This document shows positions 41,102 to 62,847 of a stretch of DNA of 64,000 nucleotides, one piece after another. Origin of the DNA: an uncultured delta proteobacterium (GTDB taxonomy: Bacteria; Desulfobacterota; Syntrophobacteria; BM002); contig CAVQGX010000006.1 in the NCBI GenBank assembly GCA_963712115.1, forward strand, positions 21,662-85,661, in the 5' to 3' direction. The notes below the pieces were generated by a model. The model was not told the DNA's origin. It saw only the letters and a program-made list of their open reading frames with translations, and did not search any database. The position numbers and the translations under genes are program-made. How positions within the stretch are numbered: the first letter of the stretch is position 1; each line of letters opens with the position of its first letter.

Positions 41102-43225
41102 ATGAAAAAGAGCCTAACTGATACAGACGTCTTTCTTCGCACCTCGCGAGCAGATGATCCCCACAGGGAGATCAAAGCCCAACTCGCCCAGTTTCTCCTC
41201 GCCCTTATTCAAGCCTTTCTCCGCACCGGTTACTACACTTCAGATCACCCTGAAGCGCAAAAAGCCAAGGTAGGACTGTACGAAGATTTTCAAGGTCTTT
41301 TCTCTCAAAGGGACGAGCTTACCTTCCTCATTCGCGAGGAACCCGAAGGGAAAAACATCTTAATCGAAGGGGTGTTGCCAGAGATCCAAGACCTCAATAG
41401 TCTCATGATAGAGGGGATGGCAGAGATGTATGTCCCCAGATTTGCCAAATTCCTTGAGCAGAAAGACCTTATCAGTTTGACTCTTAAAAACGCCATGACT
41501 CCGACGGAATTCACCAGTTTCGTTGACATCATGAGCGAACCGAGTTTTGTTGATACCAGAGGCAAGGGCGATAAAGAACGATTCAGCCGAACCGTACAAG
41601 AGAAAGAAATTGTTAACATCTCCTACATCTACAATGAAGAACTCGTCACCGTGCGGAACATCCCTTGGCGAGCTCAAATCGCCCTCACTCGTCTCAAGAA
41701 AGACTTCAGTATGGTCCCCTATTTCACCGACCTCGACCTTGAAGGGCTGAGGAAAGTCAGAAGGCAAATCATTCAGGACCTGATTCGACCTCTGCGAAAC
41801 GCTGAAGCTATCTATTATATTTTGACCAACAGTGATCTAGCCGTAACCGAGGAATTCAAGGAGGCCGAGATCGACCAAGAAATAATAGAGTGTCTTTCTG
41901 ATGATCTTCTCGCTCAGGCATCCCGGGCACTGCTCAAGGAGGCCTTCCGTCGGGGGGAGACAGAACCTGCACAAGGGAAGGCAGTAGAACTTGCCAAAGA
42001 CCTTGCCCATACCCTCAATCTAAGGAAAGTTGATGGCAGGGAGTCCATTCTGGAAGAGTACGTCAAGCACAAGCTCATTTCTGCTGATCAGTTGCCAGCG
42101 GAGATGCAGCATCAGATCAGGCTTGAGCAGCTAACCAAAAGAATTCTCCAGGACAGCAACTCTATTCTCGTCCAGCTAGACAAAATTCAGGACGAAGAAA
42201 AGTATCTGCGAGTGGCCCGAACTCTTGGGGCAATTATGCCTGAATTGACCCGAAGAGATCATTATGAGCCAATCCTCGAAATCATCAATTGTTTCGATCG
42301 ACACCTGAGTGAGAAAAAGGAGTTTTCCAACTGCGCCGCCCTAATTCTAGATGAAATCTGCAAGGGCGAAATTATTCTTGCACTGAAGAGCAAATTTCTA
42401 TTAGGCAGAAAAGAAACGTGCCAAGCCATTGCTCCCATCTTCCGTAAACTGGGCAGCAGAGCTTTACCTCAACTTGTCTCTATTCTGGTCAGAAGTCAGG
42501 ACCATTTCGTTCGCAAAAATGTCTGCGAGCTAGTAACCCAGATCGACCCCTCAGCCATCAACTTTATCCTTAGCAAACTAAACGAGAAAGGAAGCGAAAC
42601 TAGATCCATAATCGACATCCTCCGAATATTGGCAGAATTAGACTTGGACGGGGCAAAGCATCCCTTGGCCAATAGTGTCTTGTCCTTTCTAAATCATGAA
42701 AATCCCCACATCAGGGCGGAAGCTTTGAGAGTTTACTACAGAGTAAAAGGGGCAGAGGGTAAGGTACTGTATCTCGATCTCCTGAATGACAGTGATGTAA
42801 ATGTCCAGAAGGAGGCAATTGAATGTCTTGCCCGAGTCAAAAGTGGAACTGCCCTTGGTAAGTTTATGGAAATGTTAAAGAACTCCGATGATATTCCCTC
42901 GGACAAGCGAGTGCAGATTGAAGCCTGCCTGTACAGGTCCATGGGCTTTTATGGCAACCTTGAACGACCAGACATGGGAACCCTTGAAGACTTCCTTCTG
43001 GCAGCACTGGACAGCAAAGTGGGCTCAGGAACCCTTAGATGGACCACCATAAGAAAAAAGGCCATCCAACCGGAGGTAATAGCTGCAATCTGCGAGGCTT
43101 TAGGAAAAATCGGTACTCGCAGGTCTCGTGGAGTTCTGCAAAAACTCAAAAAACAAAAGGACACCCCCTGGCAAAACAAAGCCGAAGAAGCCCTGGCAAA
43201 AATAGCCGAAAGGGAAGTAGGCTGA
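41102..43225 (+). CDS. HEAT-repeat protein
   Basis: N-terminal YTSDHP; C-terminal repeats HENPHIRAEAL, DSDVNVQKEAI, ICEALGKIG. Confidence 0.82.
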   Translation: MKKSLTDTDVFLRTSRADDPHREIKAQLAQFLLALIQAFLRTGYYTSDHPEAQKAKVGLYEDFQGLFSQRDELTFLIREEPEGKNILIEGVLPEIQDLNSLMIEGMAEMYVPRFAKFLEQKDLISLTLKNAMTPTEFTSFVDIMSEPSFVDTRGKGDKERFSRTVQEKEIVNISYIYNEELVTVRNIPWRAQIALTRLKKDFSMVPYFTDLDLEGLRKVRRQIIQDLIRPLRNAEAIYYILTNSDLAVTEEFKEAEIDQEIIECLSDDLLAQASRALLKEAFRRGETEPAQGKAVELAKDLAHTLNLRKVDGRESILEEYVKHKLISADQLPAEMQHQIRLEQLTKRILQDSNSILVQLDKIQDEEKYLRVARTLGAIMPELTRRDHYEPILEIINCFDRHLSEKKEFSNCAALILDEICKGEIILALKSKFLLGRKETCQAIAPIFRKLGSRALPQLVSILVRSQDHFVRKNVCELVTQIDPSAINFILSKLNEKGSETRSIIDILRILAELDLDGAKHPLANSVLSFLNHENPHIRAEALRVYYRVKGAEGKVLYLDLLNDSDVNVQKEAIECLARVKSGTALGKFMEMLKNSDDIPSDKRVQIEACLYRSMGFYGNLERPDMGTLEDFLLAALDSKVGSGTLRWTTIRKKAIQPEVIAAICEALGKIGTRRSRGVLQKLKKQKDTPWQNKAEEALAKIAEREVG

Positions 43226-43230
43226 AGCGC

Positions 43231-43472
43231 AGATTTAGATTGCAGATTGTAGATTGCACAGAAACCACTAGGCACCATTCCAGTTCTGAGAGTCCCATTG
43301 CAGAGTTCTTATTTATCATTCGGACATTGTGGTAACTTGCCGTTTTCAAAAGAATGTGAGATGCAAAATGTCGAAATGCAAAATGATAAATTACTTCTGA
43401 CTTCTGTGTGCTGTCAGCTGCAAGCTGGCTCCTTGCTCTATGCCTTCCCAAATCCGCAATCCCTAAATCTCC
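43231..43472. repeat. Composite repeat cassette with arms shared with 53250-53435
   Basis: GAAACCACTAGGCAC (43261) and CTATGCCTTCCCAAATCCGCAATC (43438), inside AGATTGC / GCAATC heptamers. Confidence 0.8.
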
Positions 43473-43574
43473 ACCCACCTCCACTCAGACCACCGACGAA
43501 AAGCTTGCCCTTTTGCCCCCTTTGGTGTTATAGAAACAGGCTTAGCCCTTTCAGCCGTAAAGTTAGGAAGATTC

Positions 43575-45005
43575 ATGGAATACGAAGCAGTTATCGGCCT
43601 GGAAGTCCATGCCCAACTTCTCACCGAAAGCAAGATTTTTTGCGGTTGCTCCACCAAGTTTGGTGCAGCCCCGAATACCCACACCTGCCCCGTTTGTCTC
43701 GGCATGCCCGGAGTGCTTCCGGTCCTCAACCGCAAGGTAGTGGAATTCACCATCCGGTTGGCTCTGGCTACCAACTGTAAGATAGCCAGCACGAGTAGGT
43801 TCGCCCGAAAAAACTATTTCTATCCTGACCTGCCTAAAGGTTACCAGATCTCTCAGTACGAACTGCCTGTAGCCCACCAGGGCTGGATAGATATAGAGGT
43901 CAATGGTGCGAGCAAACGAATTGGCATTACTCGCATTCATCTCGAGGAGGACGCGGGCAAGCTGATCCACGATGAGACCCAGCCACTCAGCTATGTGGAC
44001 TTTAACCGCACTGGCGTGCCACTTGTTGAAATAGTTTCTGAGCCGGATCTCAGGACCCCAGAGGAGGCATCCACCTTTTTGAAAAAACTACGGGATATTG
44101 TCCGTTATTTGGACATATGTGACGGCAACATGGAGGAAGGGAGCTTGCGCTGCGACGCCAACATCTCCTTGCGACCTGCGGGGTCGGAAGGTTTTGGCGT
44201 CAAGACCGAAGTGAAAAACATGAACTCTTTCCGCTTCGTCCAGAGGGCCCTCGAGTACGAAATTAAACGGCAGCGGGCAATACTCGAACAAGGGGGCACC
44301 ATTGTCCAGGAAACCCGCTTGTGGGACAGTGACGCAGGGGTAACCCACGGTATGCGCGGCAAGGAGGAAGCCCATGACTACCGCTACTTCCCGGATCCGG
44401 ATCTGGTGCCGGTGGTGGTAGATGAGGAGTGGATAGAGAAGGTCCTTTCAGAGCTGCCTGAACTACCCGACGCTAAAAAAGCTCGGTTCATAATAGACTA
44501 TAACTTGCCGGAGCAAGATGCAATTGTGCTGACTGGCAGCAAGGAACTGGCAACTTATTATGAGGCTTGTGTGGGCCGGTTTCCTCAGCCAAAAAAGGTT
44601 AGCAATTGGATCATGGTGGAACTGCTCAGGGAGTTGAACAAAGACGAGCGAGAAATTGACCAATGCCCAGTGAAACCGGAGGACCTTGCCCATCTCCTTA
44701 AGCTAATAGATGATGGCATTATCAGTGGAAAAATTGCCAAGATCGTTTTCGAAGAGATGTACGCCACTGGTAAAACCCCAGAGTTGATTGTTGAGGAAAA
44801 AGGGTTGAAACAGGTCACGGATGAGGGCGAAATCGCCGATGTTATTGAAACCGTACTGGCTGCTCATCCCAGTCAAGTCAAAGATTACCGCATGGGGAAA
44901 GAAAAACTTCTGGGGTTCTTCGTCGGCCAGGTTATGAAGCAGACTCGAGGCAAGGCCAATCCCGAGTTGGTCAACAATATCCTCAGGGAGAAATTGGGAC
45001 AGTAA
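43575..45005 (+). CDS. gatB: Asp/Glu-tRNA amidotransferase subunit B
   Basis: [39 protein letters not shown]. Confidence 0.98.
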
Positions 45006-45008
45006 TCT

Positions 45009-46052
45009 ATGGTACCTACTATCACCTGGCAAGATAATTATGTAGTAATGATAGACCAGCGTAAACTGCCTTTTAAGGAAAGCTACGTGGTGTGTAAAAC
45101 TGCTGCCCAGGTGGTCGACGCCATTCGCAAGATGGTGATCCGCGGTGCCCCTGCCATTGGGGTGGCCGCAGCCATGGGTCTCGCCCTGGGTGCAAGCAGG
45201 ATCAAATCCGGAAACCGTTCTACTTTTGAGCGTCACTTCTCGCGTATTTGTGAGCAAATGGCCAGAGCCAGGCCCACGGCGAGCAATCTCTTCTGGGCCA
45301 TCCAGTCCATGCAGGAGGTGCTGAAACAACACCCTAAAGCGGGAGTTACGGAACTTAAAGATCTTTTACGGAGGAAGGCGGATGAACTCTTTGCCGCAGA
45401 TCAGGCCATTAATCGAGCAATTGGTTTCAATGGTCAGACAGTCGTGCCAGACGGGGCAACAGTTCTCACCCACTGCAATGCTGGAGCCCTGGCCACTGCT
45501 GGGTATGGCACCGCCCTCGGGGTAGTGCGGGCTGCCTGGGAGGCAGGGAAGAATATTCGGGTCCTCGCTGATGAAACCCGGCCTTTCTTACAGGGCAGCA
45601 GGTTAACAGCCTGGGAACTGCAGCAGGACAACATTCCCGTCACCCTGATTACCGACAGCATGGCTGGTTATCTCATGAGTAAGGGGAGGGTTCAGCTAAT
45701 TGTTGTAGGTGCCGACAGGGTAGCAGCCAATGGAGACGTTGCCAACAAAATAGGCACTTATTCTCTCGCCGTCCTGGCTAAGGAAAACAAGGTGCCATTT
45801 TATGTTGCCGCACCCCTGTCGACCGTGGATCTGCTTGTTCCCACAGGGGAGGAAATCCCTATCGAGGAAAGGGACCCTAAAGAGGTGACCCACAGTTTTG
45901 GTCAGGCCATAGCCCCGGCCGGGGTCGCCGCCTGGAACCCGGCCTTCGACGTGACTCCCAGCCGTTTTATAGAGGGAATCATCACTGAAAAAGGTATCGC
46001 CCGCAAGCCTTATAAAAAGGCTCTCAGAGCCCTGAAGGAAGAGAACGCATAA
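45009..46052 (+). CDS. mtnA: S-methyl-5-thioribose-1-phosphate isomerase
   Basis: [41 protein letters not shown]. Confidence 0.96.
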
Positions 46053-46067
46053 CGCGTTCTCTTCCTT

Positions 46068-46198
46068 CACTAGGCACTAAGCACTAGGGACTATGCACTA
46101 CTGAGAAGCCTTACGTTACAGGCAACGGGGATTCCTCGGTATCCTAATAGTTTTTTAAGAGAACTCGGTGCCTAGTGCCTACTGCCTAGTGCTTAGTT
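46068..46198. repeat. Inverted CACTAGG / CCTAGTG heptamer arrays
   Basis: CACTAGG CACTAAG CACTAGG GACTATG CACTA ... GTG CCTAGTG CCTACTG CCTAGTG CTTAGT. Confidence 0.8.
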
Positions 46199-46223
46199 AC
46201 GCGAAAAGAAGGGAGTGGAAACC

Positions 46224-47141
46224 ATGGTGGAGAAGGCTAAGAAGATCTGGATTGATGGTAAGTTTGTTGACTGGGATGATGCCAACGTTCACATCCTCAC
46301 TCACACCCTGCACTATGGCCTGGGGATCTTCGAAGGCATTCGCTGTTATGAATGCGAAGACGGACGTTCCGCAGTATTTCGCCTTCCAGAGCACGTTGAG
46401 CGGTTTTTTCACTCTGCTCATTCCATGTTCATGAAGATCCCATTCAGCCAGAAAGAAATCAGCCAGGCTATTCTGGACACCCTTAGAACCAATGAGCAAA
46501 AAGCCGCTTACATCAGGCCCCTTGCCTTTATCGGAGAGGGGGCCATGGGTCTTCATCCTCAAAACAACCCAGTACGGGTTTCTATCATTACCTGGCCCTG
46601 GGGCGCTTACCTGGGCGAGGAAGGGCTCACCAAAGGGATTCGGGCCAAGGTTTCATCTTTCACCCGGCACCACCCCAACATATTGATGACCAAGACCAAA
46701 ACTTGTGGCAACTACGTAAACTCCATCCTGGCCAAGCTCGAAGTCACCAAGGACGGCTATGATGAGGCAATTATGCTCGATCCAGATGGCTATGTTGGTG
46801 AGGGTACAGGAGAGAACATCTTCATCGCTCGCAGGGGCGTGCTCAGAACGCCACCGCTCACTTCCATCCTACCGGGAATCACCCGGAATTGTGTCATTAC
46901 CCTGGCCCGCGATCTAGGCTTCGCTGTGCTAGAGGAGAGGTTTTCCCGAGACGATCTCTACGTTGCCGACGAGGCATTCTTCACCGGAACCGCAGCAGAA
47001 ATCACCCCTATCCGGGAGGTAGACCAGAGAACCATTGGAGAGGGGCTTCCAGGGCCTCTAACCAAAAAACTGCAGGACACCTACTTCCAAGTGGTTAGGG
47101 GTAGTAAGGCGGAGTATGGCCACTGGTTAGCGTACGTTTAG
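46224..47141 (+). CDS. ilvE: Branched-chain amino acid aminotransferase
   Basis: [44 protein letters not shown]. Confidence 0.96.
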
Positions 47142-47183
47142 AGGTTTGGCGGCTACCGAGACCCGCCCTAGGTTGCTTCAACA

Positions 47184-47340
47184 ATGTGAGATTTGGGATT
47201 CGGCATAGGGCATAGAGCATGGGGCATAGGGTAAGGAGTCAGGAGTCAGAATCCAGAATTCAGGTTTCAGCTTTTGTGTTTCTCTTCTTTGACACCTGAC
47301 ACCTTGAGATTTGGTGCTTGGGATGTGGGATGTGAGATAT
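47184..47340. repeat. Mosaic of heptamer arrays
   Basis: GGCATAG, AGGAGTC, CAGGTTT / GACACCT and GGATGTG runs; 47260-47305 is the reverse complement of the 51464-51510 module. Confidence 0.8.
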
Positions 47341-47375
47341 ATATCTAGAGAGAAGCATAGAGTCGGAGAGCCAGC

Positions 47376-47732
47376 GTGGACATTGAGGACTTATACGAAC
47401 TGATTCCAGATTTAATCTGCAGCGAAGACTGCTACGAATGTTGCAAGAATTTCGGTGTGCCTTCCAGAACCAAGGTAGAGGACGAACGGCTCAAGAAGTT
47501 CCTGGACGATAACGGTATGCAGCCTGGGGAGGCTCGCGGTCACACCTGCCCATACCTGGATGAAACCTTACCAGAAGGGGGGTGTTCCATTTACCCTGTC
47601 AGGCCATTAATATGTCGCCTATACGGCACATCTCCCAGCTACCTTTGCAAAATGGGGATCAGGCCGGTGAGGCTTCTGGAGGAAGATGAAGAGGAGGAAA
47701 TCTTTTATCTCTACCAGAAGAATTTTTTCTAA
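47376..47732 (+). CDS. YkgJ family cysteine-cluster protein
   Basis: CSEDCYECC, CPYL, CSIYPVRPLICRLYG. Confidence 0.88.
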   Translation: MDIEDLYELIPDLICSEDCYECCKNFGVPSRTKVEDERLKKFLDDNGMQPGEARGHTCPYLDETLPEGGCSIYPVRPLICRLYGTSPSYLCKMGIRPVRLLEEDEEEEIFYLYQKNFF

Positions 47733-47872
47733 TTAGTGCTCATCCAAAAACGGCCGTTTTCAGATGAACGCGATCAGCTATCAGCAAAGTACATGTAAAC
47801 ACAACATATCAAACTGACAGCTGAATGCTGACAGCTTCATCCGGGAATCTCGTGCCGGATGGACACTAATTA
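47730..47872. mobile_element. MITE-like element, family E
   Basis: TAATTAGTGCTCATCC / GGATGGACACTAATTA (14/16) enclosing TCAGC / GCTGA heptamers. Confidence 0.65.
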
Positions 47873-48064
47873 TTCAAGCCTGTAGTGAGGCTCGTCTCCT
47901 GCCTTTCCCACCAAAGCAAGCTGCCCCCCACATTGCTCGCACACATGGAGACTGCTCAACATCTTCACCTCGGTGTTGGCAGGATCTTCCAGAGATATTA
48001 AATCGGCAGGAATGTAGATGGACACTCCACACTGCTGGCACATGCATTCCATCTCTTCACTCAT
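47870..48064 (-). CDS. Small zinc-ribbon protein
   Basis: GAGGTG RBS; CQQC...CEQC; 64 aa. Confidence 0.7.
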   Translation of the reverse strand: MSEEMECMCQQCGVSIYIPADLISLEDPANTEVKMLSSLHVCEQCGGQLALVGKAGDEPHYRLE

Positions 48065-48242
48065 AAAATCACCTCTCGCAAAAACCAACTGTAATCCAAG
48101 CTTTAGCCACCGAGGAAAATACCCGGAAAAATTAGTCCTGGCAAGAGAAAGGTGATTTATTGTGGCTAGGGTCCTCAAGGATAATTATATTTTTAAACTA
48201 ACGACTGACTAAGTAAAAAAACATATTCGATTGGAGGGCTTT

Positions 48243-49385
48243 ATGGATTTCGCTATGCCAGACAATGTGGCCAAAGACCTGGTGGAGTTTACCGATTTTC
48301 TTCGAAACCACATGGAGCCTTTCCTCAATGGGTGGTACAAGAAGGAGGTCATTCCAAGGGAGTTTTTTCAGCATCTGGGGCAGGAAGGCTGGTTGGGTTT
48401 CGCTCAGAAGGATGGACGGTTCGTCGAACAATCCTACCTGACACAGACGCTTCTTATGGAAAAACTGGCCAAAATTTCCCCGGGCGTTGCAGTGGCTGTC
48501 ATGGTCCAGATCTCTCTTGGCATGGTTCCTCTTTTTCTTTTCGGTTCAGAAGCACAGAAGGCAACTTACTTGCCCTCGGCCGCCAGAGGAGAGACCCTCA
48601 TTTGCCTGGGCAATACGGAGCACAAGGCCGGAAGCGATGTTGCCAACATCGGTATGGAGGCTGAGAAAGTCGATGGCGGTTGGGTGCTCAACGGTACCAA
48701 GGCCTATGTCACCAACGGTGCTATCAGTGACCTCGCACTGATTACTGCGGTCTCTGACCCTGATGCCAGTCGAAATCGCAGACTGTCCATGTTCCTGGTT
48801 GACCTCTCCTCAAACGGGGTACGGAGAAAAAAATTGAACAAACGAGTCTGGATCCCCTCTGACCTAACTAGGATACATTTCGACAAGGTCTTTGTTCCTG
48901 AAGAGAACCTCGTTGGTGAACAGGGTAAAGGACTGCACCAGGTACTTGCCACCTTCACTCAGAGCAGAATCCCTATCAGCGGACTAACATTAGGTACAGC
49001 GGTGGGAGCTTTTGAGGCGGGACTAGAGCGGGCCACAAAACGTGAGATCTTCGCCCAAAAGATCGTGGATTTTCAGGCAAAATCTTTCGAGATTGCTGAC
49101 TTTTTTACCCGCATCCAAGCAGCCCGCCTACTGGTGCTGAAGGCGGGTTGGACAAAAGATCAGGGCAATGACTTCCGCCTGGAAGCCTCAATGGCCAAAT
49201 ACATGTCGGTGGAGATCGCCCGGCAGATTGGGGTTTGGGCGGCTGATCTCTTTGGCGCTGCTTCAGTGATGCAGGATCACCCGGTGCACAAATTCCCAAT
49301 GGATGCTTGGGGTTCTTCACTGGGAGAAGGAACCCAGGATGTGCAAAAATTGATAATTTTTAGGGAGATTATGAAGAGGGAATGA
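48243..49385 (+). CDS. Acyl-CoA dehydrogenase
   Basis: TEHKAGSD, LNGTKAYVTNG, ASMAK, GEGTQDVQK. Confidence 0.93.
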   Translation: MDFAMPDNVAKDLVEFTDFLRNHMEPFLNGWYKKEVIPREFFQHLGQEGWLGFAQKDGRFVEQSYLTQTLLMEKLAKISPGVAVAVMVQISLGMVPLFLFGSEAQKATYLPSAARGETLICLGNTEHKAGSDVANIGMEAEKVDGGWVLNGTKAYVTNGAISDLALITAVSDPDASRNRRLSMFLVDLSSNGVRRKKLNKRVWIPSDLTRIHFDKVFVPEENLVGEQGKGLHQVLATFTQSRIPISGLTLGTAVGAFEAGLERATKREIFAQKIVDFQAKSFEIADFFTRIQAARLLVLKAGWTKDQGNDFRLEASMAKYMSVEIARQIGVWAADLFGAASVMQDHPVHKFPMDAWGSSLGEGTQDVQKLIIFREIMKRE

Positions 49386-49546
49386 GGGAATTGTAGATTT
49401 TAGATTGTGGATTGGGGAATGGATCTTATACATTTGAAACTATAGATATTTCCCGCAGCGTGCTTATATTTTACAGGACAAAAGCTTATCTGTTAAATTA
49501 GATTTAGGGCTAGAATCACTACCAAATGGTCAAGGAGGAGAGCAAC

Positions 49547-51439
49547 ATGGCCAAGAAGTCAAGTCGTCCATCATCCGAGGATAAGAATATCTTCGAAAAA
49601 CTCAGGTCTTCATTCGGCGACATTCCGCCCAAGGGCGATCCCGGCCGTCGCAAATTTCATTTCTCTTTCTGGTACTTTCTTATGGCTCTACTCGCTTTGT
49701 CGCTTATTCACGACTATTTCATGGCTAGACAGGTCAACACCATCCCCTACTCTGAATTCAAACGCTACGTGGTCGAGGGGAAAATCCAGAAACTTTCCAT
49801 AAAGCCTCAGCAAATAACCGGCACACTCACTCAAGACGACAAAGGAGGCAAGGATCAACAGTTTGTTACCGTAAGGGTTGATGACCCAGGATTGGTAAAA
49901 CTGCTGGACGAGAATAAAATCGACTACACCGGTCACTACGAAAGCAAATGGCTGGCCAGCCTCCTGGCCTGGATTCTGCCCCTCGCTTTCTTCATCATTG
50001 TGTGGAGATTTCTCCTTGGCCGCATGGCCGGCGGCCCGCAAGGGGTTCTCTCGTTGGGCAAAGCCCGGGCTAAAATTTACGCAGAACGTGAGGTGGGTAT
50101 AACTTTCAACGACGTCGCTGGTATTGACGAGGCCAAGCAAGAGCTTGAGGAGATTGTCGAATTCCTCAAGACTCCAGAGAAGTTCACTCGTCTCGGGGGA
50201 AAAATTCCCAAGGGTGTCTTACTGGTGGGTGCGCCGGGAACGGGCAAGACTTTGTTGGCCAAGGCCGTAGCGGGTGAGTCCGGAGTGCCTTTTTTCAGCA
50301 TCAGCGGCTCTGATTTTGTCGAGATGTTCGTTGGCGTGGGTGCTGCTAGAGTGCGCGATCTCTTTGCCCAGGCCAAAGAGCATGCTCCCTGCATCATCTT
50401 TGTGGATGAACTGGATGCACTGGGCAAAGCGCGGGGCATGAGTCCCATGGGGGGGCACGATGAGCGGGAACAAACTCTTAATCAACTCTTGGTGGAAATG
50501 GACGGCTTCGATGCCACAGTCGGGGTCATCATCATAGCTGCCACAAATCGTCCCGAGATTCTCGATCCTGCCCTTTTGCGGGCAGGACGCTTCGACCGGA
50601 ATGTGGCCATAGACCGGCCTGACGTGCGCGGTCGGGAAGCTATTCTCAAGGTTCATGCAAAAGGTGTAAAGCTTGGATCTGATGCGGACCTTGCTAAGGT
50701 AGCGGCTCTGACCCCTGGTTTCGTGGGTGCGGACCTGGCCAACCTGATCAACGAGGCAGCCCTGCTTTCAGCCCGCCGCGACAAGAAAAGCGTTGGTATG
50801 GCCGAATTTCAAGAGGCCATAGATCGGATCATTGGTGGGCTGGAAAAGAAAAACCGCATGATGAACGAAAAGGAAAAACTCATCGTAACCTACCATGAAA
50901 GTGGTCACACCTTGGTGGCCATGAGCGTGCCCACCGCCGATCCCGTCAATAAAGTCTCCATTATTCCCAGAGGAATTGCTGCCCTGGGTTACACTCAGCA
51001 ACTTCCCACCGAGGATCGTTATCTCATGACTCGGGAGGAACTACTTGACCGACTTTGTGTGCTTTTAGGAGGCCGGGTGGCGGAGGAAATTGTCTTTAAA
51101 GACGTATCCACAGGTGCGCAGAATGACTTGCAGCGGGCTACCGACATTGCCCGCAGTATGGTGACAGAGTATGGAATGAGCGAGAAGTTGGGCTTGGTCA
51201 CCTACGCCAAGGAGAGAAGGCCTCTTTTTCTGAATACGGGTTTTTCACCCGCCAAAGAATACAGCGATGAGACCGCAAAAGAGATTGATTCCGAGGTCTC
51301 GCGCTTAATGTCGGAGGCTCACGACCGGGTCAAGAAGATACTCACGGACAAACGACAACAACTGGAGATTCTCTCCCAGACTCTATTGGAAAAAGAGACT
51401 ATACTCGGGGATGAACTTAAGAAACTGCTAGAATTGTAG
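49547..51439 (+). CDS. ftsH: ATP-dependent zinc metalloprotease FtsH
   Basis: Two TMs, [34 protein letters not shown]. Confidence 0.97.
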
Positions 51440-51458
51440 ATTGCAGATTGACAAACTA

Positions 51459-51530
51459 GGTTTCAGGTGTCAGGTGTCAGGAAAGAGAAACACAAAACCT
51501 GAAACCCGAACACTGAAACCTGAAACCTCA
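51459..51530. repeat. Inverted CAGGTGT / CTGAAAC heptamer hairpin
   Basis: Spacer GAGAAACACAAAA is also present, reversed, near 47272-47285. Confidence 0.8.
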
Positions 51531-51595
51531 ACGCTGAAGACTGACTGTAACAAAACCCACCTCCCCTAACGGTGCTTAATTTGCATAAGGTAAGA

Positions 51596-53113
51596 CTACT
51601 CATTGCCCTCGGCCAGGGGCTTCCAGCTTTGAAGTAGCCGGGTGAGCAGGTGCACGCCCATGCCTGTGGCCCCCTTGGGCACCAAAGCACTCCCTTTATC
51701 CGCCCAGGCACAGCCGGCAATGTCCAGATGAGCCCAGGGAATTCCCTCGGGAACGAACTGCTTCAGGAAAATCGCAGCGGTAATTGCCCCCGCTTTCCGC
51801 CCGTCGACGTTTTTGAGATCGGCAACGTCGCTCTTCATCGACTCGAAGTAGCTATCCCAAAGGGGCAGTGGCCAAACCTTCTCACCACTTTCATCCGCCG
51901 CAGCCTGCAACCTTGCCTGTAATTCATCGTTGCTACTCAGAAGTCCTGCGACATTGTCACCCAGTGCCACGATACATGCTCCGGTAAGAGTGGCAAGATC
52001 AATTATGGCCTGAGGCTTATAGCGGTCGGCATAAGTGAGGGCATCGGCGAGAATCATTCGTCCCTCTGCGTCTGTATTTATCACCTCAATGTTTAGACCA
52101 CTCAAGGAGTGGATCACATCTCCCGGCTTGTATGCCTTGCCGCTAGGGAGATTTTCCGTAAAAGGAATTATAGCAACAACCCTCACTGGCAAGTTCAAGG
52201 CTGCAATAGTTTGCATGGCCCCGATTACTGCAGCACTTCCTGCCATGTCATGCTTCATCTTGTCCATGTCCTTTGCCGGCTTTATAGAAATTCCGCCGCT
52301 GTCAAAAGTGATACCTTTGCCTACGAGAACCACGGGGGGGCTCTTCTCGCCTGAAGGCTGATAATCCATCACCACCATGAGGCCCGGTTCTTCACTCCCC
52401 TGGGCCACCGCCAAAAAAGCGCCCATCCCCAGCTTCTTTGCCTCGGGCTCCCGAATAAGTTTGAAGCTCATGCCAGCTTGGGCCGCCACATCCTCCGCCC
52501 TCTTAGCCAAAAAGGTAGGAGTAGCTTGATTGGAGGGCAAAGTGACTAGATCCCGGGCCAGATAGATTCCTGCCGCCACTGCTTTTGCCCGGTCCACACC
52601 TGCTGCCAATGCTTTTGTTTTCTTACTAGAGAGAATAGCTAAGGAGTCAAAGTCCTTGATCTTATCCCGCTCCCTGGTAAGTAATTTAGTGAATTGGTAA
52701 AGGCCCAGCATCCCACCTAGGACGCAAGCTTCAGCCGTTTCTCCAATACCAAGAGGGAATTCGCTGTCCAGTGGAATCGGCAAAACCGCGCGGGGCTGAC
52801 GCCGATCCCTTAAGGTTTTGAGAGCCTGGGCCATAGCTTCTCTCAAAGCCTGGGCAGTGAAATTCTCCCTTTTCCCCAGCCCCATGAGAAGAATGCGTTT
52901 TATAGCCGCAGAACCCTGAGTGAAGAGAAGAACATTTTCCAGGTGCTCGCCGCGAAAATCACCAGCTTCAATCACCCGGCTGACAATTGATCCAGTAACG
53001 GTGTTGACTGCAGCCGCAGGCTCGAGCAACTTATCGTCCATCTCAAAATGAAATAGTACTACCGCTTCCGCAGCTGTAGCGGTGATATCACCTTTCTGGA
53101 TTTTTATATCCAT
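51596..53113 (-). CDS. pepA: Leucyl aminopeptidase (M17)
   Basis: GKGITFDSGG, MKHDMAG, NTDAEGR, DLATLTGA, HLDIAG. Confidence 0.96.
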   Translation of the reverse strand: MDIKIQKGDITATAAEAVVLFHFEMDDKLLEPAAAVNTVTGSIVSRVIEAGDFRGEHLENVLLFTQGSAAIKRILLMGLGKRENFTAQALREAMAQALKTLRDRRQPRAVLPIPLDSEFPLGIGETAEACVLGGMLGLYQFTKLLTRERDKIKDFDSLAILSSKKTKALAAGVDRAKAVAAGIYLARDLVTLPSNQATPTFLAKRAEDVAAQAGMSFKLIREPEAKKLGMGAFLAVAQGSEEPGLMVVMDYQPSGEKSPPVVLVGKGITFDSGGISIKPAKDMDKMKHDMAGSAAVIGAMQTIAALNLPVRVVAIIPFTENLPSGKAYKPGDVIHSLSGLNIEVINTDAEGRMILADALTYADRYKPQAIIDLATLTGACIVALGDNVAGLLSSNDELQARLQAAADESGEKVWPLPLWDSYFESMKSDVADLKNVDGRKAGAITAAIFLKQFVPEGIPWAHLDIAGCAWADKGSALVPKGATGMGVHLLTRLLQSWKPLAEGNE

Positions 53114-53127
53114 CGGTCACTCCTTTG

Positions 53128-53435
53128 GTCAGCATTCAGCTATCAGCCGTCAGCAATCAGCTTTTCCACCAGTTGTTTTGCTACAGATTAGTTTTTTTAC
53201 CACAAAGGCCACAAAGACCACAAAAGGATATTTGAGATTTTAGAACTAAGATTGCAGATTTGGGAAGGCATAGGGCGTAGGACTATGCGGTCATTTGGCC
53301 ACTAGATGTGGCCGTCATAATGCTACGCTGTCATTCATGGTCATTTGTTGTAACGACTTAATGACGGCCGTGAGGCCTAATGACGGCGCAGCCGAATGAC
53401 GCGGAGCAAATGACCTGCCAGTGCCTAGTGGTTTC
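53128..53435. repeat. Composite repeat cassette (TCAGC heptamers, CCACAAAG 9-mers, shared arms, GTCATT/AATGAC module)
   Basis: Arms match 43261 and 43438; interior matches 19960-20180 on the opposite strand. Confidence 0.82.
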
Positions 53436-53495
53436 GGCGCAGATTGGCGCTGGATGAGCCCTCAACACGAAACCATCCGATCTACTACGTCTGGC

Positions 53496-54167
53496 CTATT
53501 TTTTCTCTGACGGAAACATCTCAAGCAGGAGCGGATCAAGGCTGTAATCGGGGTCAAGTTGGCGCAGCTGTTTTACTGCGGTCCAGGACTCACCTACCTG
53601 ATCTGCCTTGGCTGCAGCCAGTGCCAAGCAGTGCCAACTATCCGGGTCCTTCGGTTCTAACTTGGCGGCCCTCCGACATGAGATTATAGCCTCGTGGTAA
53701 TGCTCCTGTCTCAGCATAGCCATGCCGAGGCCGCGATGATTCTCACCACACTCTGGCTCTATGTCCACAGCCCGGCGAAAGGACTGCTCTGCCCTCACAT
53801 ATTCATCCAATTCCATGTATGACATGCCAAGATTGTAGAAAAGATCCCCTCTTTCCATACCAAGATCAATTGCTCGCAGGTATTCGGCGGCCTCATCTGG
53901 GTGGAGGCCGAGCTGGCCGTAGGCGTAGCCCAGATGATAACGGGCCAGCCCGTTACCGGGCTCCTGATTCAACACTCGCAAATGTTGGTTAACCGCCTCT
54001 TCGAAACGACCCTGCCTAAGGGGCAAATCAGCATATTCAGGACAGACCCAGCGGTCATCTGCAAGGTATGTCCTTTGCTCTCTTAAGCTTTGACAACCAA
54101 AGGGAAGGAGGAAGAGAAGGATCAGGAATAGTCCCAGCACGAGGCTTGTACCCTTAATGAGTTTCAT
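53496..54167 (-). CDS. TPR-repeat lipoprotein
   Basis: Hydrophobic N-terminus with FGC; YHLG / YNLG / HRGLG TPR units. Confidence 0.85.
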   Translation of the reverse strand: MKLIKGTSLVLGLFLILLFLLPFGCQSLREQRTYLADDRWVCPEYADLPLRQGRFEEAVNQHLRVLNQEPGNGLARYHLGYAYGQLGLHPDEAAEYLRAIDLGMERGDLFYNLGMSYMELDEYVRAEQSFRRAVDIEPECGENHRGLGMAMLRQEHYHEAIISCRRAAKLEPKDPDSWHCLALAAAKADQVGESWTAVKQLRQLDPDYSLDPLLLEMFPSEKK

Positions 54168-54185: not shown

Positions 54186-54285
54186 TGATTTTAGATTTCA
54201 GACTTTAGATTTAAGATTGGCAAAAGTTCAAACTATAAAATCTCAAATCTCAGATCCACAATCTACAATCTGAGATCTGCAATCT
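54186..54285. repeat. Inverted AGATTTY / RAATCT heptamer arrays
   Basis: Left and right arrays are reverse complements of one another. Confidence 0.78.
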
Positions 54286-54314
54286 CTATGCTGCAAACTT
54301 GATGCCGAGATGTG

Positions 54315-62757: not shown

Positions 62758-62847
62758 AGATTTAAGATTTAAGATCTTAGATCTCAGATTGACACACCTG
62801 GAAATTACAAAATTCTGCAATCTTCAATCTTAAATCTACAATCTAAG
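62757..62847. repeat. Inverted AGATTTA / TAAATCT heptamer arrays
   Basis: Same family as 54186-54285 and 43231-43260. Confidence 0.75.

Follow-up and report, generated by a model that had tools for sequence, protein, structure and literature searches.

Mosaics of short repeats are known from the intergenic DNA of several bacteria. The REP and BIME sequences of enterobacteria, which go with RAYT transposases, are mosaics of short palindromic and non-palindromic motifs that lie in spacers, preferentially downstream of genes, and the STRR arrays of cyanobacteria are built from units such as CCCCAGT, TTGGTCA and CAACAGT. The small dispersed repeats (SDR) of Nostocaceae are reportedly, after Elhai et al. 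in 2008, mobile, of very small size and inserted into repeats of other kinds. Here, two intergenic mosaic repeats, designated e1 and e2, are described from an uncultured delta proteobacterium (Desulfobacterota; Syntrophobacteria; assembly GCA_963712115.1). Both are located in a stretch of 64,000 nucleotides of contig CAVQGX010000006.1 (positions 21,662 to 85,661, forward strand), which is called the window and whose first letter is position 1.

Amongst the closest described systems, the BOX elements of Streptococcus pneumoniae and S. suis consist of boxA, a variable boxB/boxD section and boxC, and form stem-loops that are probably transcribed as untranslated regions (UTRs), as set out in part of PMC3049150. 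In the NIME of Neisseria, 20-bp dRS3 inverted repeats flank over 100 families of 50-150-bp RS elements, according to the relevant part of PMC1797815. Heptamer repeats with the unit TAACTGA are described for Beggiatoaceae, Cyanobacteria and Bacteroidetes in sections of PMC4679880, and the SDR of Nostocaceae are mentioned in part of PMC5861425. The titles and abstracts of the literature matches listed held no published account of heptamer repeats in Desulfobacterota or sulfate reducers.

The analysis followed an original prediction that e1 and e2 carry the same outer arms around different cargo, and that the interior is an exchangeable cassette between fixed junctions. We find a non-coding composite repeat with about six copies in this genome, two of which are e1 and e2, and the arms of e1 and e2 are junctions between blocks of heptamer arrays.

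Results

Two elements with common arms

The presence of two elements sharing both arms was confirmed. The 5' arm, the 15-mer GAAACCACTAGGCAC (GAAAC followed by 1.4 CACTAGG units), is located at 43261-43275 on the forward strand in e1 and at 53421-53435 on the reverse strand in e2. The 3' arm, the 24-mer CTATGCCTTCCCAAATC(C/T)GCAATC, is located at 43438-43461 (forward) and at 53250-53273 (reverse), and in e1 it reads as the junction CTATGCC - TTCCCA - AATCCGC AATC. Searches of the window that allowed up to two mismatches for the 5' arm and up to three for the 3' arm returned these two matches each and no more, against 0.10 and 0.00 expected from shuffled sequences. The interiors, which measure 162 nucleotides (nt) in e1 (43276-43437) and 147 nt in e2 (53274-53420), are unrelated, as had been predicted; a blastn search of the genome with e1 (word 7, E<=10) met the e2 locus at the two arms only. 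The motifs that had been named for the interiors are also present, with ATTTATCATT at 43311-43320 and AATGATAAAT at 43382-43391 in e1, and repeated GTCATT/AATGAC motifs in e2.

Both elements are intergenic and run in the same direction as their flanking genes. Element e1 occupies the spacer between an open reading frame (ORF) of 707 aa and gatB, starting 4 nt past the stop codon of the ORF and ending some 110 nt short of gatB. The spacer of e2 separates a TPR-protein gene from pepA.

On the forward strand, e1 is preceded by an outer left array of GCAGATT-type heptamers, termed H, at 43229-43258 (Tandem Repeats Finder (TRF) period 7, 4.4 copies). Behind the 5' arm, which we term an A block, the interior is made of two parts. 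The first, 77 nt at 43276-43352, holds ATTTATCATT and is single-copy, with no other blastn match in the genome and none in 17 genomes of the genus. The second, at 43353-43437, is built from repeat modules, in the order AAATGCA-type units, CTGACTT and CAGCTGN heptamers, and GGCTCCTTGCT; TRF reports an array at 43353-43385, and positions 154-245 of the e1 query (counted from 43200) gave many short blastn matches genome-wide. The 3' arm overlaps an outer right array of AATCCGC-type heptamers, termed h, at 43451-43480, which is inverted relative to the array at 43229-43258. These two outer arrays, GATTGCA at 43229-43258 and AATCCGC at 43451-43480, form the sole long-range stem in the minimum-free-energy (MFE) fold of e1.

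On the reverse strand, e2 has the 5' arm at 53421-53435 without an upstream H array, so that the composite has outer inverted H/h repeats at e1 and not at e2. Its interior consists of a dispersed palindromic GTCATT/AATGAC element with its own ends (53289-53415) and a linker, GCATAGTCCTACGCC, at 53274-53288, which holds an A-type unit in inverted orientation, TAGTCCTA; in the fold, this unit is paired to the 5' arm. The 3' arm overlaps an h array of the AATCTGC type at 53227-53260, which is common to the same spacer in a related genome, G002.

Loci that carry both ends

The genome under study (G000) is a 4.9 Mb draft of 70 contigs, with 48.9% G+C and an estimated contamination of 5.99%. The core of the 5' arm, CACTAGGCAC, has 178 occurrences in 150 A blocks, always inside arrays of the CACTAGG/CACTAAG type. 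The 3' arm corresponds to a CTATGCC-type array joined to an AATCCGC-type array through TTYYCA; the 24-mer has 76 matches with up to five mismatches, and 46 such junction (B) blocks were found.

Most copies of each arm are alone, with 141 of the 150 A blocks lacking a B junction within 600 nt and 31 of the 46 B blocks lacking an A block. Where the two do meet, an order is preferred: 9 of the 46 B loci have a co-oriented A block upstream, at a spacing of 87-189 nt, and the other arrangements number 2, 4 and 0 (9 of 15, binomial P 0.004). The exact 15-mer occurs in three copies, all of which have a B junction at +145 to +165 nt, a pairing with a hypergeometric probability of 1.5e-4 on the basis of 9 A blocks with a junction of this kind among 150. 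The original prediction had named, as what would speak against it, arms that occur independently and pair only at chance level. The first half describes most arms, which are indeed unpaired, yet pairing is far above chance.

The proposed search of the genome for both arms yielded six loci that share both ends, a set made up of the exact 5' arms and of near-exact copies preceded by a GATTGCA-type array: C6:64922 (e1), C6:75082 (e2, in which the left array is missing), C18:82647, C26:96768, C26:42756 and C22:24138. The plan of a two-ended locus is [GATTGCA array] - GAAAC - [CACTAGG array] - middle - [CTATGCC array] - TTCCCA-like - [AATCCGC array]. The H array that precedes the 5' arm in e1 does so too at the C18, C22 and both C26 loci, and at the orthologous locus in the related genomes G012 and G007. 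The middles are of at least five kinds: single-copy sequence with small arrays in e1; the GTCATT palindromic element in e2; an AGTAGYC array with a TTGAGAGGAA core at C18 and C26:96768; GAGGTCA arrays with an AATTCGA hairpin at C26:42756; and GAGGTCA arrays with another short sequence at C22. Array lengths at the element ends differ from copy to copy, and the strings of modules upstream of the 46 B loci are highly diverse.

Turnover in orthologous spacers

The comparison set consisted of genomes of 17 other species of the genus. In the spacer upstream of gatB, which holds e1 in G000, G012 combines a GATTGCA array with the exact 5' arm and, on the far side of an array hairpin, GGTGTCAGG/CCTGACACC, a B-like junction (CTATGCCTTTTCAAAGCC). 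G007 has a GATTGCA array, a ACTAAGCACTGAGCACT block and a B-like junction around a GTCATT element, and this element aligns over its full length with e2, which in G000 occupies the other locus. The relative closest by flank identity (G016, 90-93%) has no arms in this spacer, where a 9-mer hairpin of CCACAAAG lies together with a further repeat; other modules are found in G004, and the spacer is plain and array-free, as judged by eye, in the more distant G010, G008, G013 and G017. A TAGCCCGGAT..TTTCATGAAT repeat was observed in the gatB spacer of G016 (G016:C198), and its 10-mers are amongst the commonest in G000, at approximately 95-101 copies.

In the pepA spacer, none of the 12 genus genomes with both flanks alignable has e2, with G013 incomplete. 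The match to G001 and G003 ends exactly before GAAAC, and homology to G002 resumes at about 53260, inside the 3' arm at AATCTGCAATC; from these limits, about 175 bp, from GAAAC to TTCCCA, are new in the G000 spacer. Since the AATCTGC-type h array is common to the G002 spacer, the right-hand array predates the arrival of e2.

Two further loci were compared, and in these, too, outer arrays persist around middles that have changed. At C26:80960, G006 keeps the left CAGCNGG and CACTAGG arrays and the right CTATGCC-TTCTTA-AATCAGC junction around a different middle; G016, G012 and G007 keep only a CAGCTGG/CCAGCTG pair around a sequence of about 130 nt; and in G003 and G005 the spacer measures 15 nt and contains one unit. 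In G016, the GATTGCA and AATCTAC arrays of the C18 locus are retained, and the loop that they enclose, of some 40 nt, is unrelated. The C18:82481-82661 spacer is a hotspot of gain and loss. As separate observations, the orthologs in G002, G007 and G012 have an insert of about 600-700 nt without heptamer arrays, which may hold a small opposite-strand gene, and G000 and G016 have the GATTGCA/AATCTAC hairpin element in its place.

A palindromic element within e2

A blastn search of the genome with e2 gave 72 matches; among the matches listed, 41 were of at least 60 nt and 17 of about 100 nt or more. The homology starts at e2 position 21-22 (GGTCATTTG) and stops at 122-147, inside both arms, and only one other copy, at C2:84767-84950 (91% identity), keeps both arms. 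Many copies are also found in the relatives. The element has the ends GGTCATTTG...CAAATGACC, and in an alignment of 17 copies only the GTCATT/AATGAC motifs are conserved. The fold of e2 is more stable than expected (z -3.82, with 0 of 200 shuffles as stable). The e2 interior is a separate dispersed palindromic element with its own ends. Many homologous copies, as expected of a MITE (a miniature transposable element with inverted repeats), are found for the e2 interior and not for the single-copy 77 nt of e1. A conserved RNA structure of the GTCATT family was considered and is unsupported, with covariation at 2 of 20 pairs.

Transposase genes were also considered. Four Y1-transposase genes are present in the genome, none of them linked to the ends of e1 or e2. 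A RAYT-like Y1 frame (183 aa, C20:238180-238446) has GC-rich hairpins of the form GGGCGGGG(A/T)..CCCCGCCC on both flanks, and a link between RAYT and the e1/e2 arms was rejected, as this gene is flanked by a different repeat. Hairpins of the GGGCGGGG..CCCCGCCC kind are dispersed in spacers of G000 and its relatives. Two near-identical composite copies lie about 3 kb apart at C27:137301-137321 and C27:140660-140680, and one of them carries a GC-rich hairpin, CCCGCCCGCC..GGCGGGCGGG, inserted in its AATCCGC array, an example of nested insertion; this hairpin belongs to the repeat kind that flanks the RAYT-like gene.

Heptamer arrays in the genome

TRF reported 4658 arrays in G000, of which 2115 have period 7; the next commonest period is 9, with 541 arrays. 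The commonest heptamer units are ACTAGGC (144), ACCTCTG (120) and AAATCCG (103), followed by AGAGCAT, AGGGCAT, AATCCGC and AGCGCAT. By crude ORF calls, all but one of the 150 A blocks (149) and all but one of the 46 B junctions (45) fall between genes, as do 2433 of the 2664 arrays of period 7, 14 or 21, and at least one period-7 array is present in 924 of the 3037 spacers of 30 nt or more (about 30%). The arrays tend towards the 3' ends of genes. In 65% of the tandem spacers with arrays (n=617) they are closer to the stop codon upstream than to the start codon that follows. Divergent spacers hold 16 A blocks and convergent spacers 30, though divergent spacers make up more DNA. Relative to tandem flanking genes, 65 A blocks are co-oriented and 35 anti-oriented; for B junctions the numbers are 13 and 13.

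Period-7 arrays of the same family that lie within 250 nt of each other form 187 inverted and 22 direct pairs, at a median gap of 31 nt. Their polarity is strict: 45 of 49 families occur in one order only, with G>C in the left arm for 131 pairs, C>G for 49 and a tie for 7. In the GATTNNN (H/h) family, convergent H..h pairs number 48, divergent h..H pairs 2 and direct pairs 6 and 8. The 45 H/h middles of at least 20 nt fall into 39 clusters, and 32 are single-copy in the genome. Given the counts of inverted pairs and the diverse, mostly single-copy middles genome-wide, the same arms with different cargo are the rule for this repeat system and not a peculiarity of two loci. Examples of inverted array pairs in the window were observed at 54187-54286 and 62758-62844. 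The contig pairs C16/C59, C46/C47, C43/C70 and C52/C29 were observed to have identical repeat loci and flanks, which may reflect assembly redundancy.

Distribution and alleles in other samples

The 3' junction, with up to one mismatch, was found in 17 of 17 genus genomes, in one of four genomes from other genera of the family and in none of 19 from other families; the corresponding counts for a two-unit CACTAGG pattern were 17 of 17, two of four and none of 19. Across GTDB, searched with one genome per species, the exact 3' junction occurs in 32 stretches, all from uncultured Desulfobacterota-type metagenome-assembled genomes (MAGs) with titles naming Desulfobacterota, Deltaproteobacteria, Desulfobacteraceae or Syntrophobacterales. 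The exact 5' arm has three copies in G000, one in G012 at the orthologous gatB locus, and one in G010; the last lies in non-repeat sequence, was rejected as a family member and is taken as a chance match. The heptamer vocabulary, with dozens of families, is largely restricted to one genus. A cyanobacterial origin was also rejected, as HIP1 and the cyanobacterial STRR units are not enriched and the matching records are Desulfobacterota-type MAGs.

Amongst public sequencing runs, the highest share of sampled words of 42900-43800 was 0.49. A DNA contig of run X2 matches the window with 0 mismatches over 43154-43226, continues with 26 other letters and rejoins at 43428. In this allele, with 43227-43427 replaced, the left array, the 5' arm and the interior are missing and the 3' arm is kept; the same continuation past 43226 is also found in RNA-library contigs of X15 and X16, from other studies. 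A contig of run X1, anchored at 43197-43275, diverges directly behind the 5' arm, where it runs on as a longer CACTAGG-type array. As all of these contigs come from other samples, the alleles are those of relatives, and the source population itself is not thereby shown to be heterogeneous. Positions 43303-43395 were covered by no contig of the four runs, which proves nothing on absence, and a metagenome contig collection gave 0 matches to a 30-mer of the e1 interior and 0 to a 24-mer from the end of the 707-aa ORF.

Further features and neighbouring genes

The genes around e1 and e2 are gatB, mtnA, ilvE, acyl-CoA dehydrogenase, ftsH, pepA and the TPR-protein gene, and no recombinase was found among the ten ORFs scanned around the two elements. 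Rfam gave 0 matches in 42900-53900 at E<=1. Promoter and terminator scans returned nothing above shuffle expectation; the 3' arm of e2 has one promoter-like site, TTCCCA-18-TAAAAT, against 0.5 expected.

Outside the repeat, a block conserved between species lies upstream of gatB at 43496-43537 (forward strand), and it is probably the gatB promoter or leader. The block, GAAAAGCTTGCCCTTT..TTTGGTG(T/C)TATAGGAAC, is kept in all six relatives with a segment reaching it (G016, G012, G010, G008, G013 and G017); the segment of G007 ends before the block, and in G004 it is partly preserved (AAAAACTTGCCC...). A promoter scan of 43496-43537 gave no match. It was observed that the block GAAAAGCTTGCCCTTT..TTTGGTGTTATAGAAAC is conserved in these six and that everything upstream of it varies.

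Two arrays follow e2 on the reverse strand. A 9-mer array, CTTTGTGGT, at 53199-53224 (TRF period 9, 2.9 copies) is half of a CCACAAAG hairpin module, of which G002 and G012 have the full form, and a GCTGANN heptamer array at 53136-53162 (TRF period 7, 3.9 copies) lies directly upstream of the pepA start.

Discussion

Altogether, these observations establish that the arms are generic and modular and have a preferred order, that the middles differ, that the GTCATT element is independent, and that the middle has turned over at an orthologous locus with the arms kept. The original proposal of an exchangeable cassette between fixed junctions was therefore upheld in one part, as interiors vary and turn over with arms kept at the six loci, amongst the gatB orthologs and in contigs from other samples. 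The other part was not borne out: the arms are generic modules that mostly stand alone, the arrays at the ends vary, no recombinase lies nearby, and neither fixed junctions nor a dedicated exchange was found.

The reading that we favour, and consider probable, is that e1 and e2 belong to intergenic mosaics resembling BOX, NIME, BIME and STRR, in which nested insertion and recombination between dispersed arrays bring about the turnover of the interiors. Dispersed arrays of the same family would serve as short stretches of homology at which ectopic recombination, gene conversion or template switching could take place, and such events would replace whatever lies between two arrays. Palindromes are unstable, and we suggest that breakage at hairpin tips may assist the replacement of interiors. 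Independent palindromic elements such as GTCATT would insert, or be recombined, into the scaffolds, and no dedicated cassette enzyme would be needed. By analogy with REP, BOX and STRR, the elements may persist as hairpins in 3'-UTRs or between genes and be largely selfish or structural.

Several points weigh against turnover by array recombination and nested insertion, or limit the data behind it. No recombination event was directly observed, and the shared homologies are short (10-30 nt), a poor substrate for RecA-type recombination. Simple recombination does not predict the strict polarity within families (45 of 49) or the mostly single-copy loops. The complementarity of H/h arms is 0.844 at the same locus and 0.822 across loci (sd 0.009, maximum 0.848); with same-locus values barely above cross-locus ones, inverted duplication or strong selection for pairing is not evident. 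The fold of e1 is no better than that of shuffled sequences (z -1.18), and the covariation term in the 17-copy GTCATT alignment is +0.12, from the 2 covarying pairs of 20. The gene calls are crude (ORFs of at least 110 aa, 77.6% of the genome coding), and likely duplicated contigs (C16/C59, C46/C47, C43/C70) were kept, which slightly inflates the repeat counts. Additionally, the strain-level data are contigs of four runs from other samples and not reads of the source population.

A different explanation is that the whole unit, including its arms, is a MITE-like element copied by a transposase acting in trans, with interiors that diverged later by decay, slippage and nested insertions. We regard this as rather unlikely, although several observations speak for it: the whole of e2 with its arms recurs at C2:84767-84950 (91%), in G016:C31 (89%) and at the G007 gatB locus, its left end in the pepA spacer is sharp and the 12 alignable orthologous spacers lack it, and the genome has four Y1-transposase genes. 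However, the interiors of the six two-armed loci are non-homologous and hence did not diverge from a single master copy, the number of units in the end arrays is variable, and at the gatB locus three species have orthologous arms around interiors that are not orthologous. On either side of the RAYT-like Y1 gene are GGGCGGGG..CCCCGCCC hairpins and not e1/e2 arrays. No target-site duplication was found at the e2 boundaries set against G001, G003 and G002, which counts against the recombination and nested-insertion reading as well. Dedicated cassette exchange, in which the arms would be the recognition sites of a site-specific recombinase or another enzyme that swaps or installs interiors, has models in integron attC sites and in the recombinase proposed for the Neisseria dRS3/NIME arrays. 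The pairing of all three exact 5' arms with a 3' junction at a near-constant distance, the several interiors at one orthologous locus and the strict polarity of same-family array pairs would fit such a system. We nevertheless judge it very unlikely, given that no recombinase is encoded by the ten ORFs scanned near e1 and e2, that most copies of each arm are unpaired, that junction positions vary among loci, and that the exact 5' arm occurs only in G000, G012 and, in non-repeat sequence, G010, while the repeat system is genus-wide.

Chance resemblance or an artefact of MAG assembly would be conceivable for a draft in 70 contigs with 5.99% estimated contamination, the more so as the e1 interior was found in neither the contigs of the four runs nor the metagenome contig collection. 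This explanation is extremely improbable, as shuffles expect only 0.10 and 0.00 matches, a like architecture is found in the single-contig genus genomes G002, G011 and G013, and the G012 ortholog has an identical 5' arm at the equivalent locus.

A bolder idea is that a genus-wide system installs or maintains paired, polarity-fixed arrays around short locus-specific sequences and swaps the enclosed sequence, with a putative enzyme or binding protein that reads the 7-nt units. We consider this quite unlikely; if true, genes would be followed by a hairpin scaffold that can be programmed, with control of RNA 3' ends or binding of protein arrays as examples of its use.

If turnover through array recombination and nested insertion holds, a genus of uncultured sediment Desulfobacterota has a rich and ordered vocabulary of heptamer arrays that makes spacers hypervariable between species and even between near-identical strains. 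Such spacers would offer a natural system for studying intergenic turnover driven by short repeats, as well as markers for strain typing, and heptamer-repeat biology, so far mainly that of cyanobacteria and giant sulfur bacteria, would extend to another phylum. The strict polarity of array pairs and their mostly single-copy loops could point to a function at the level of RNA or single-stranded DNA.

Comparison with described systems

The resemblance to BOX, a modular intergenic element with conserved ends, a variable middle and stem-loops, whose length varies among strains and which clusters with other repeats (as described in part of PMC3049150), is architectural only. The modules here are degenerate heptamer arrays and not boxes of 45-50 nt, and the middles are of many unrelated kinds, including single-copy sequence, and not copies of one boxB. 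With NIME, the present repeats have in common short conserved repeats around many unrelated interiors, and for NIME the relevant part of PMC1797815 also reports syntenic arrays that vary by strain and proposes recombination as the driver. The arms here differ in being heptamer arrays in inverted pairs, and no link to a phage integrase is known for them. The dRS3 motif ATTCCCN8GGGAAT is absent from e1 and e2; in the genome it has 14 occurrences, against approximately 0.3 by chance by our own arithmetic (12 fixed bases, 4.9 Mb). Integron cassettes differ as well, as e1 and e2 have housekeeping neighbours and no adjacent integrase, and their interiors, of 147-162 nt, are non-coding.

As in REP and BIME, palindromic and non-palindromic motifs are combined in mosaics that are biased to the 3' ends of genes. 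Unlike in those systems, the arms are not GC-rich palindromes of 20-40 nt, and the RAYT-like gene is flanked by a hairpin repeat that differs from the e1/e2 modules.

The present repeats also resemble the heptamer repeats of cyanobacteria and Beggiatoaceae, which are abundant in intergenic DNA, with several kinds per spacer and a function that is not known (part of PMC4679880). Abundant intergenic tandem heptamers, the mark of STRR-type repeats, are found here as well. The counts of CCCCAGT (262), TTGGTCA (448) and CAACAGT (263) in G000, against about 280-305 expected, show none of these units to be strongly enriched (TTGGTCA approximately 1.5-fold), and HIP1 is not enriched. Compared with STRR and TAACTGA repeats, the phylum and the units are different, and the arrays here form inverted pairs and ordered composites, which the sections of PMC4679880 drawn on here do not describe. 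None of the defining sequences of the known systems was found here where tested, and the e1/e2 repeats are counted amongst intergenic mosaic repeats.

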